DNA of 24,655 bases from a virus (lineage: Duplodnaviria; Heunggongvirae; Uroviricota; Caudoviricetes): positions 64,001 to 88,655 of the IMG/VR virus record IMGVR_UViG_3300021387_001267. One strand, written 5' to 3'. The notes under the pieces are model-generated. The model ran no database searches, was not told where the DNA came from, and saw only the letters and a list, made by a program, of their open reading frames with translations. The first letter of the stretch is position 1. Every line of letters starts with the position of its first letter. Positions 10,001 to 24,655 of the stretch are shown in pieces. Both the position numbers and the translations under genes were made by a program.

Positions 10001-10022
10001 TTTGGGATTCTCCTTTCAATTT

Positions 10023-23649: not shown

Positions 23650-24075
23650 CTATAGCCTCCATGGACAAGTATCATACAGCGTTCTTTCGATCGGTTCTTC
23701 AAGACCGAGGAGCGATATGTCGCCAAAGTGTATCGCCTGGTGTGTTGTGAACGAAGTGCATACGACTAATTCAGGATCCATTAGAACATCGGAGAGATTA
23801 GCAACGTCTTCGAGTTCTATTGGATTCATATGATGTATGTATATCTTTTCTCCAGGCTCAAATGGGCGTTCGCTACATGCCAGATCGAATCCTCCATCTC
23901 GAATAATGATCTCGCGTCTGAAGTTTCGCCATTCTGTTGATGTATAAAACTTCTGATTTAGCCAGCGCTCTTTTCCGAACGTTTCATGGCCAACTGTTCC
24001 GCCGATTCGCAAATATTCGTAACGCTCCTTAAATGTAGGAAGTTTAATGAGTTCAGTATAGGTACGGATCTTCAT
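23650..24075 (-). CDS. HNH endonuclease (packaging-associated, HK97 gp74-like)
   Basis: FYTSTEWRNFRREIIIRDG, IHHMNPI and HQAIH. Likely start MKIRTY at 24075 after GGAGGA. Confidence 0.85.
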   Translation of the reverse strand: MKIRTYTELIKLPTFKERYEYLRIGGTVGHETFGKERWLNQKFYTSTEWRNFRREIIIRDGGFDLACSERPFEPGEKIYIHHMNPIELEDVANLSDVLMDPELVVCTSFTTHQAIHFGDISLLGLEEPIERTLYDTCPWRL

Positions 24076-24409
24076 ACTCTTCCTCCGTAGGAATCGTGTA
24101 AGAACGCATTGCGGCGATCGCCTTACGATACAGGTCTTCTCTCGTCTTTTCCGAGTCAATAGCTTCTGTTTTCGCTCGAAGTAGTTCGTTTTCCTTCTGA
24201 AGCTTCTCCATTTCCTCGCGTTGTTTTATCGATCCAGCCTTTAAGAAATGGACGTATTCTGCAGATGACGCTGTGCCATTTCGTATTCGCTCTTCTACAG
24301 CATCATATACGAGTGCAATTAGTTGATTCTCGCGTTCTTCCGGCGATCCTGCTGGCGGAAATCGAATATCTGAAAAATTGTCTACAACTTCTTTTTTCTT
24401 AGATGCCAC
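24053..24409 (-). CDS. Putative terminase small subunit (first gene of the operon)
   Basis: EERENQLIAL...GTASSAEYVHFLKAGS followed by a coiled coil. First gene, next to the HNH gene. Likely GTG start at 24409 after GGAGGTG. Confidence 0.55.
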   Translation of the reverse strand: MASKKKEVVDNFSDIRFPPAGSPEERENQLIALVYDAVEERIRNGTASSAEYVHFLKAGSIKQREEMEKLQKENELLRAKTEAIDSEKTREDLYRKAIAAMRSYTIPTEEEYEDPYLY

Positions 24410-24454
24410 GCAGCAGTTCACCTCCATTCTTTGCTACGTATGTGCCTTGATGCC

Positions 24455-24608
24455 TTTTAGGTGTGTATGGATGGTGAAGGAAATGTGGAGGGATGACAGG
24501 AGATCAGAGAACCACAAGTCAGAGAGCTTGAAAGGAGAATCCCGGCATTTGGCCAGATCGTTCTATAAAGGAGGATAGAACACACGAAGAATCCATACAC
24601 ACGTAAAA
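24455..24608 (-). ncRNA. Candidate structured leader/sRNA with multiple anti-Shine-Dalgarno motifs
   Basis: 12-bp perfect inverted repeat (24461-24472 / 24591-24602) extended by 5 bp. It encloses a 7-bp hairpin with loop CCUCCUUU and four more CUCC/UUCC motifs. Confidence 0.6.
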
Positions 24609-24655
24609 AACATCAAAACCAAATATCAAATTGTCCCTCCGGGGCAAATTTTAGG

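Follow-up and report, generated by a model that had tools for sequence, protein, structure and literature searches.

The window analysed here, a stretch of 24,655 nucleotides (nt) from an uncultured rumen phage, is the final 24.7 kb of an 88,655-bp IMG/VR contig (IMGVR_UViG_3300021387_001267, positions 64,001 to 88,655). Close to its right-hand end lies the element that is the subject of this study, a folded, pyrimidine-rich segment that precedes the first gene of the packaging operon and holds motifs resembling the anti-Shine-Dalgarno sequence of 16S rRNA. The minus strand carries all sizeable open reading frames (ORFs) of the 88.6-kb contig and the plus strand is gene-free; consequently, the element stands at the very start of the genome in gene orientation. 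It is followed by gene 1, an HNH endonuclease, a connector-like protein and a block of unknown genes, and further along the operon by TerL, portal, a protease-capsid fusion, the major tail protein, the tape measure and Dit, the phage being a cohesive-end (cos) siphovirus with a classical TerL. Throughout, G000 denotes the window's own phage genome, G001, G003, G004, G005 and G007 its relatives, and L-numbers related loci. Coordinates of the individual features are collected in Table 1.

We retrieved 44 related viral contigs with gene 1, most of which carry the gene 80-360 nt from the contig end, and 16 of them open with the same end motif as the window, C(C/T)TAAAA..CCCCGGAGG. The first base of L003 and L005 is identical to the window's end, and in the read-through contigs L004 and L007 similarity to the window's genome stops exactly there. 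The read-through junction, which is conserved (e.g. L004:2660-2800), shows a G-run/C-run hairpin, UUUU and ..CATCGCGCCGGT, and then CYTAAAA..CCCCGGAGG. Two cultured phages whose genome ends have been determined, ClubPenguin of Streptomyces and GantcherGoblin of Arthrobacter, share the start motif (L047:1-30; L048:1-30), and in both the gene 1 homologue is gene 1 and the HNH gene is gene 2. Judged by these sequence comparisons, the right end of the window is the true left cos end of the phage. The element therefore sits between the cos cut and gene 1, the location expected of a cosB-type site, and begins ~35 nt from the cos end. The opposite end of the contig is not at cos and breaks off within a gene, so that the right-hand tip of the genome is absent from the contig.

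A covariance model places the element at 24444-24619 on the minus strand (76.4 bits, E 6e-16). All features listed by a first-pass annotation, made from the letters alone, were found where it had put them, including a 12-bp stem that pairs GUGUGUAUGGAU (24602-24591) with AUCCAUACACAC (24472-24461) and closes an interior of exactly 118 nt (24590-24473). That the helix continues beyond a C.C mismatch was also correct; its extent, however, had been put at 5 further pairs and proved to be ~16 (4 of them G.U), so that the closing helix, P1, measures 26 bp when only the strict inverted repeat is counted, and ~28-29 bp in the minimum free energy (MFE) fold. The five anti-SD-like motifs attributed to the interior are likewise present, although only four of the five hold CUCC and the fifth reads UUCC. 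A simple terminator scan scored the small hairpin ahead of the conserved motif, together with the U-rich run UUCUCCUUU that follows it, as terminator-like; at the same position L005 has UGGC-UUAU-GCCA. All eight letters of the conserved motif CUCCUUUC lie within ...CACCUCCUUUCU, which we take, as quoted in that annotation, to be the 3' tail of Gram-positive 16S rRNA, and CUCCUUUC is the exact complement of GAAAGGAG, the commonest Shine-Dalgarno (SD) sequence of the phage.

Table 1. Features of the leader element and its surroundings (positions in the window)
Feature	Coordinates	Strand	Basis or remark
Left cohesive (cos) end of genome	24635..24655	-	End motif CCTAAAATTTGCCCCGGAGGG, gene-strand reading from contig end
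TTTGATATTT box, extended -10-like, candidate promoter	24621..24630	-	Directly upstream of P1
P1 5' arm, closing helix	24591..24616	-	MFE fold, inverted-repeat alignment, RNAalifold, covariance-model match
Hairpin GUUCUAU/AUAGAAC, CCUCCUUU as 8-nt loop	24560..24581	-	Sequence and MFE fold
Small hairpin CUGGC-CAAAU-GCCGG, ahead of conserved motif	24542..24556	-	MFE fold
AUUCUCCUUUC motif	24540-24530	-	Sequence
CUCCUUUC, motif kept across family, unpaired	24530..24537	-	Alignment and MFE folds
Lineage-specific extra pyrimidine motifs: UCUCCUG mini-loop, AUCCCUCCAC, UUCCUUCACC	24473..24506	-	Kept in closest relatives only
UGA-UCUCCUG-UCA mini-hairpin	24506-24494	-	Sequence and MFE fold
AUCCCUCCAC	24494-24485	-	Pyrimidine motif
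AUUUCCUUCACC	24484-24473	-	Pyrimidine motif
P1 3' arm, closing helix; holds conserved CACCUAAAAGGCAU	24447..24472	-	Faces one conserved mismatch
Gene 1 translation start region, SD GGAGGUGA (24425-24418)	24407..24427	-	Probable GUG at 24409-24407 or AUG at 24427
Gene 1, 124 aa, phrog_4259	24053..24427	-	First gene after cos; predicted helix then long helix
HNH endonuclease, phrog_4321, cos-cutting type	23650..24159	-	Follows gene 1

The sense (minus) strand of the element folds at -58.9 kcal/mol (z = -6.4), none of 200 shuffles folding as well, and the antisense strand at -51.1 kcal/mol (z = -3.3). With 69.5% pyrimidine, the 118-nt interior ranks highest among all segments of that length in the 88.6-kb genome (next best 67.8%). 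It contains four CTCC and no GGAG, and only 0.08% of segments in the genome hold at least four CTCC. The same bias was seen over the interiors of 53 unique elements, where CTCC occurs 142 times and GGAG twice (25.8 vs 0.4 per kb), against genome-wide sense-strand rates of 1.8 and 5.2 per kb, respectively. Each element carries on average 2.9 CUCC, and 71% of these are unpaired in MFE folds.

Searches based on gene 1 alignment yielded 96 unique regions between cos and gene 1, drawn from viral and metagenome contigs, and in addition one from an Oscillospiraceae metagenome-assembled genome (MAG). The spacers fall into two classes, short ones (mostly 32-110 nt) without the element and longer ones (~130-360 nt) with it, and in the carriers, ~50 related contigs, the element is present as a single copy at a fixed place between cos and gene 1. 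A covariance model (R1) built on a 25-sequence alignment of the largest clade, from which the window was left out, gave 53 sense-strand matches among 90 sources of related loci and exactly one copy in each of the complete genomes G000, G001 and G007. It found nothing extra in 926 kb of unrelated phage contigs carrying the 14-mer AGGATTCTCCTTTC; a scan of viral contigs with this 14-mer returned mostly reverse complements of ordinary ribosome-binding sites (RBSs), and the element only in contigs already known. Of 77 unique cos-motif loci, 27 were scored as lacking the element, or ~21 after correction of misclassified rows, many of them with spacers of 32-110 nt. These relatives share the cos motif, gene 1, HNH and TerL, and include the cultured phage ClubPenguin, which has 105 nt before gene 1. 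The element is thus missing from phages with the same cos motif, gene 1 and HNH and is therefore not a core packaging signal; a cosB-type site would be expected wherever the same terminase and cos system occurs.

Conservation is most evident in the pairing of P1. The 25-sequence alignment defines a 25-bp consensus helix in which 13 of the 25 pairs show double compensatory changes and hardly any is broken. Over 43 unique relatives the helix comprises 954 Watson-Crick pairs, 63 G.U, 18 A.C and 6 other combinations (24 non-pairs), with most positions showing three to five pair types; nearly all members have a P1 of 26-30 bp, whose complementarity is retained at ~98%. Element length ranges from 109 to 193 nt and the spacing of the arms differs by tens of bases; since the length of the interior varies, a hairpin fits better than a phased protein bridge. 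The expectation that the stems would be kept in relatives was thereby borne out, with compensatory changes in P1 and in the inner hairpins alike.

Within the interior, CUCCUUUC represents the only letters common to all clades, and in the 25-sequence alignment its TCCT never varies, while conservation of the letters flanking TCCT is 90% or higher. The motif is unpaired in most MFE folds; in one clade a hairpin loop contains it. In the main clade, the order of substructures is a GCUCAU-loop hairpin, a variable hairpin, the unpaired (GGAU)UCUCCUUUC, a CCUCCUA-loop hairpin and a closing AUAAAACC stretch. The first of these hairpins (P2) displays its invariant GCUCAU loop on at least 14 distinct complementary stems, and its own arms fold at -7.2 kcal/mol compared with -4.4 for swapped arms. 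The CCUCCUA loop of the larger clade is also borne on covarying stems (e.g. GUUU/AAAC, GUAAA/UUUAC, GUGUUG/CAACAC). In the subclade of the window (the window, L005, L006 and L007), a CCUCC-loop hairpin takes the place of the GCUCAU hairpin and there are more CU-rich motifs, and the counterparts of the CCUCCUUU-loop hairpin in the three relatives keep the hairpin with altered stems. The conserved boxes of the main clade all differ from one another and form no repeated array, and the window has 4-5 CU-rich boxes. What had been read as an array of five motifs is accordingly a lineage-specific trait, given that relatives keep only CUCCUUUC and one CCUCC loop. A main-clade hairpin with the invariant loop UUGCUCAU(G) (e.g. 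L181:477-514) is kept in ~25 relatives and absent from the window's element; the loop is the complement of AUGAGCAA, a start codon followed by two codons.

Over the whole window, no family of Rfam 15 gave a match at gathering threshold (including ar14, CcsR1, RsaE, c4, Phage_pRNA and 6C), and a permissive search of 24300-24655 at E <= 10 returned only a plant miRNA noise match (12 bits vs a cut-off of 245), in agreement with the initial statement that no named family was known for it. Comparison of the element with 50,697 cultured phage records by blastn gave no match. When 185,579 species genomes were searched for prophage copies, only L301 was found (CAZMXF010000001.1, a 54.7-kb contig of an uncultured Oscillospiraceae MAG), which carries the element and gene 1 (60% identity); it hints at the host group, unless a phage contig was assigned to the MAG in binning. 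A 437-nt unannotated left end is found in five cultured phages of Arthrobacter globiformis, and it holds a 155-nt fold (GantcherGoblin L048:172-326). This fold (z = -9.0) has a 32-bp closing helix with CUCCUUUCAAG inside and keeps the letters of CUCCUUUC. R1 does not reach it; the fold is nevertheless a probable counterpart of the rumen element, and homology is probable. Fold and conservation support the original description of a structured element whose anti-SD-like motifs are unpaired on the coding strand, and show in addition that it is conserved; we are confident, with little reserve, that the element is a real and conserved structured RNA. As such it would represent a new RNA family, similar in kind to RNAs already known in bacteria.

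Gene 1 had been named TerS in the first-pass annotation. What lies behind the element is instead an unnamed two-helix protein, not a recognised TerS, followed by HNH. Gene 1 gave no Pfam match and no match in the PDB by sequence or by fold, and has no recognisable DNA-binding fold. Because the scan of ORFs revealed no gene recognisable as a small terminase, gene 1 may be the missing TerS, a candidacy based only on position; a hint from an atlas of kinship with the T5 small terminase scored 0.75, which is chance level, and was rejected. Homologues occur as gene 1 or 2, with HNH next, in many cultured actinophages, and the range of the gene extends from rumen Firmicute phages to phages of Arthrobacter, Gordonia and Streptomyces, HNH always being next. 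In relatives, the AUG of gene 1 is missing and the SD and downstream start are kept. Its RBS lies 22-30 nt downstream of P1, and no terminator was found after P1.

In main-clade loci (e.g. L181:610-660), the SD and UUG start of gene 1 are placed in the loop of a small conserved hairpin, GGCAG...CUGCC, of which the window has a weaker version, UAGCA...UGCUG, at ~24436-24411. A gene 1 SD displayed in this manner could kiss the anti-SD loops of the leader. Complementarity between P1 and the RBS of gene 1, such as would underlie a switch between the two, is confined to the subclade of the window. On the sense strand of G000 at ~45-88 kb, outside the window, a promoter-like box, TCACAAAA(A)YTRCA..TATAGTGG, is repeated before many small genes, and the same region has terminators AAAGGAGC..GCUCCUUU whose descending arm is complementary to the RBS that follows. 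The idea that the box of the leader is a copy of this repeated promoter box, TCACAAAA..YTRCA..TATAGTGG, was discarded: the repeated box is not in the leader, and TGATATT is not part of it.

Transcription of the element is suggested by a bovine rumen metatranscriptome run (X4), in which a 175-nt contig covering 24457-24631 is the only contig on the last 3 kb of the window. In three other runs (X2, X5, X6), contigs cover genes next to the leader in a 90-97% relative, and no contig falls on the leader itself, a gap that proves nothing. Upstream of P1, a T(T/G)ATATTT box goes with the element: both are present at 43 loci and neither at 21, and the 13 exceptions are mostly due to script misclassification. 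A sigma-70 scan did not call the TTTGATATTT box of the window. We infer that the box (TTTGATATTT/TKATATTT) is a candidate promoter of the element and that the active form is the sense-strand RNA, for which the placement of every gene on that strand, the extreme CUCC/GGAG bias and the sporadic G.U changes in P1 given below also speak; the leader RNA is presumably processed.

The unpaired motifs have evident complements in the phage. The reverse complement of the conserved motif is the commonest RBS of the phage, GAAAGGAGAAT being found ~10 times, and CCUCCUA complements the second common RBS type, UAGGAGG. A perfect 16-nt complement of the leader motif occurs at the RBS of the tail-chaperone gene (10004-10019; a 156-aa gene upstream of the tape-measure gene). 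This RBS, TTGAAAGGAGAAT, precedes at least three other genes too, and the match arises because TTGAAAGGAGAAT is the commonest RBS of the phage; it reflects a consensus and designates no specific target. Two longer matches span the start codon. G000:2604-2630, the RBS and start of a 47-aa hydrophobic ORF, is complementary to leader 24522-24548 at 25 of 27 nt, and G001:4439-4468 is complementary to the leader at ~27 of 29 nt through its start codon, leader and target forming complementary hairpins. The start codon of the 47-aa ORF lies in a small hairpin, and the match may mark a true target or be due to chance or recombination. Specific trans targets were not upheld as a general explanation, an antisense excess in the own genome over other genomes being confined to G000 and G001, with none in G003, G004, G005 and G007. 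Joint matching of the GCUCAU loop and CUCCUUUC to an RBS-AUGAGCAA start was also put aside, since it fits one gene of G001 and lacked a proper control. The SD of gene 1 is GAAAGGAG-like in most clades; consequently, generic pairing in cis is possible and is indistinguishable from pairing in trans.

We tentatively propose, as a reading that we find plausible although somewhat short of probable, that the element acts on translation initiation as a structured 5' leader RNA whose anti-SD seeds pair with RBSs. An RNA of ~175 nt would form the 5' leader of the packaging and morphogenesis operon, probably transcribed from the -10-like box between the cos end and P1. P1 (26-30 bp) would close a branched, G-poor interior that presents CUCCUUUC in a junction and CCUCC in a hairpin loop, with three further CU-rich motifs in the window's phage. 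These unpaired seeds, exact complements of GAAAGGAG and UAGGAGG, would base-pair with RBSs, so that translation is held down or timed. The RNA may act in cis on gene 1, just downstream, in trans on other messages of the phage or its host, or in both ways. A further role of P1 may be to shield the 5' end or, as an RNase III stalk, to free the folded core.

Several observations weigh against this proposal. The X4 contig has low depth (3.6x), comes from a single run and shows no strand, and no second RNA run holds the element. When whole elements are folded, 30 loci are more stable as the sense strand and 34 as the antisense strand. Core-stem mismatches number 70 G.U vs 50 A.C, most of which come from one conserved U.G and one conserved A.C position; in P1 the conserved U.G position on one strand is the mirror image of the conserved A.C (or C.C) position on the other, and G.U counts by duplexfold (160 vs 156) are uninformative on strand. 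Sporadic one-sided changes in P1 do favour G.U over A.C, by 12 to 1 in the 25-sequence alignment and by 36 to 18 over 43 rows with the conserved U.G column set aside, counts taken from alignments that had been fitted to the sense strand. In G003, G004, G005 and G007 the long antisense matches are missing and complementarity reaches 12-18 nt at most, leaving two positive genomes out of six, and leaders match the RBS of their own gene 1 no better than those of other phages (8.98 nt own, 9.05 nt cross). Taken with the consensus nature of the 16-nt match, these results did not sustain the early suggestion that the RNA pairs with the RBSs of late genes. Finally, P1 is partly conserved in sequence, which could mean protein recognition, and the place of the element is exactly that of lambda cosB.

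The strongest competitor, in our view unlikely, is a leader RNA that pairs with no RBS and works as a 5' stabiliser or RNase III stalk or else acts on transcription of the long late operon, whether by antitermination of the put or nut type, by loading Rho or by attenuation, the CU-rich motifs being binding sites for proteins or polymerase. The structural and conservation evidence applies to it equally, and it is favoured by the failure to find co-variation with targets. With its 26-30 bp, P1 exceeds the ~20 bp of double-stranded RNA usually considered necessary for RNase III, and it would lie at or near the 5' end if the box is the promoter. The interior is C-rich and G-poor as in a Rho-loading site, and the small hairpin with UUCUCCUUU was scored terminator-like, a geometry, however, that is missing in the clade with the motif inside a hairpin loop. 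Since the whole genome is transcribed from one strand, a processivity device would make sense; the likeness to boxA is, as far as we can judge, weak and counts against an antiterminator. What such a leader does not explain is the invariance of CUCCUUUC and CCUCC, complements of the two main SDs, and the near-ban on GGAG.

A packaging element acting as DNA, which we consider distinctly improbable, would have the inverted repeat and CT-rich boxes bind the small terminase (possibly gene 1), HNH or a host bending protein and so position the cos cut. The model is cosB of phage lambda, a terminase-binding DNA between cosN and Nu1 that is needed for packaging and whose R sites include inverted copies. 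The element resembles it in its inverted copies and in lying after the cohesive-end cut and ahead of the first packaging gene, both P1 arms are partly conserved in sequence with a conserved mismatch, the wobble counts lack a clear strand bias, and two half-sites changing in concert with a co-evolving protein can mimic covariation. Unlike cosB, however, the element is dispensable, being missing from numerous relatives in which cos motif, gene 1, HNH and TerL are the same, and it shows hairpin covariation and strand-biased composition. The retention of 98% complementarity over 26-30 bp is far beyond the need of a protein half-site, the arm spacing varies by tens of bases, the boxes of the main clade are all different, and an RNA contig spans the element; for covariation of its small inner hairpins, double-stranded DNA has no reason. 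The DNA-level terminase site that the first-pass annotation had named as a refuting case has become less likely.

Two further explanations seem to us very improbable. In one, the hairpin and GGAU-U-CUCCUUUC would mimic helix 45 and GGAUCACCUCCUUUC as a decoy of the 16S 3' tail, titrating a factor that binds or cuts the anti-SD region (Era, a maturation RNase, an anti-SD-cleaving toxin). The likeness to 16S passes CCUCC in the clade of the window to reach GGAU(N)CUCCUUUC after a hairpin; GGAU is limited to one clade, however, and the flank varies elsewhere, and the CCUCCUA loop suits the phage RBS UAGGAGG better than 16S CCUCCUU. Toxins that cut the anti-SD region have been reported (PMC12620021); no candidate partner protein is known. 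In the other, equally remote, the active form would be single-stranded DNA (a lagging-strand or sso-like priming signal) or a plus-strand RNA with several SDs serving as ribosome decoy, for which the folding of the stems on both strands (antisense z = -3.3) and the indecisive wobble counts can be cited, and against which stand the absence of plus-strand genes from the 88.6-kb genome, of consistent start codons after the plus-strand SD motifs in relatives and of replication genes or origin features nearby, as well as the preference of sporadic one-sided changes for sense-strand G.U. The plus-strand decoy raised at the outset found no support in gene and start content; two small plus-strand ORFs (66 aa, 24378-24578; ~31 aa) were also dismissed, their starts not being conserved in relatives.

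If it operates as a leader with anti-SD seeds, the element would resemble RsaE, RNAIII, the cuckoo RNAs and c4 of phage P1 in its working, and by our comparison it belongs to none of them, as motif, architecture, context and Rfam scores differ. RsaE and RNAIII, which are found in Gram-positive bacteria with strong SDs, carry conserved unpaired C-rich motifs, often several, that pair with SDs and block the initiation complex; a 5' hairpin stabilises them, and RNase III can be recruited (PMC2790875, PMC2837412). The element shares with them a conserved unpaired C-rich motif. Their motif, however, is UCCC(C), compared with CUCCUUUC or CCUCC here, and they are free-standing chromosomal small RNA (sRNA) genes with a terminator, whereas the element is a phage operon leader enclosed in a 26-30 bp helix and is neither a free-standing gene nor equipped with a 3' terminator of its own. 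SD pairing and a block of the 30S subunit are on record for these sRNAs; the element shows, at sequence level, complementarity to SDs. The cuckoo RNAs of Alphaproteobacteria (alpha-r14, RF02344; CcsR1-4, RF02791), often processed from a 3' untranslated region, consist of 2-4 adjacent hairpins with CCUCCUCCC in each loop (PMC4615179, PMC8034643). Like them, the element displays anti-SD sequences in hairpin loops on freely varying stems. Its seeds, however, are unlike each other: CUCCUUUC occupies a junction or large loop, a single hairpin loop carries CCUCCU(A/U), and the multi-branch interior that contains them is enclosed by a long helix. There is no Rfam match to this family.

Other known systems share single aspects with the element. 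The c4 antisense RNA is encoded in the leader of the operon it controls, from whose transcript it is cut, and is processed by RNase P. In phages P1 and P7 (RF01695) its loops pair with the ribosome-binding region of the target, as summarised in a review of phage-derived sRNAs (PMC12197685). The likeness lies in a phage RNA with loops that could pair with a ribosome-binding region; c4, however, is a 77-nt RNA of the immunity region with gene-specific complements, whereas the element has generic anti-SD seeds, lies at the packaging end and has no Rfam match. RNase III processing stalks, such as the sites in T7 early mRNA and the leader-trailer helix of rRNA (PMC10250234), are comparable in that a long helix with a conserved mismatch is formed from the flanks of a folded RNA, and P1 could be cut to release or trim the RNA. 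Cleavage of the element is putative, and known stalks do not enclose a leader with anti-SD seeds. With the pRNA of phi29 the element has in common a 5'/3' helix and a junction, and it differs in that the GCUCAU and CCUCCUA loops are not mutually complementary, in the lack of an Rfam match and in belonging to a cos siphovirus with classical TerL. Regulators of this type are familiar from bacteria; a text search of the same sRNA review (PMC12197685) gave no anti-SD regulator that is a positionally fixed part of a phage packaging operon. Particular to the element are its fixed place by cos, the long enclosing helix, the CUCCUUUC seed and its probable presence in cultivable Arthrobacter phages.

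A broader reading of the anti-SD leader, which we hold to be quite unlikely, would make it a phage-made stand-in for the mRNA-docking tail of the ribosome. Produced at the onset of the packaging and late operon, it would cover GAAAGGAG and UAGGAGG sites of earlier phage messages, and perhaps of host messages, and so act as an RNA-only switch from early to late translation, a module common to phages of Firmicutes and Actinobacteria; in a variant, it would be a decoy that protects ribosomes from enzymes attacking the anti-SD.

The true left end and the cos motif are now fixed for these uncultured phages, which is useful for annotation and for assessing the completeness of metagenomic phage contigs, and a covariance model with ~50 members is at hand. 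Since the probable counterpart occurs in phages amenable to culture and genetic manipulation, the question is open to direct testing. If the proposal is true, widespread cos phages, from those of rumen Firmicutes to, probably, cultured phages of Arthrobacter, would control translation by means of a dedicated folded RNA built on the complement of the ribosome-binding site.

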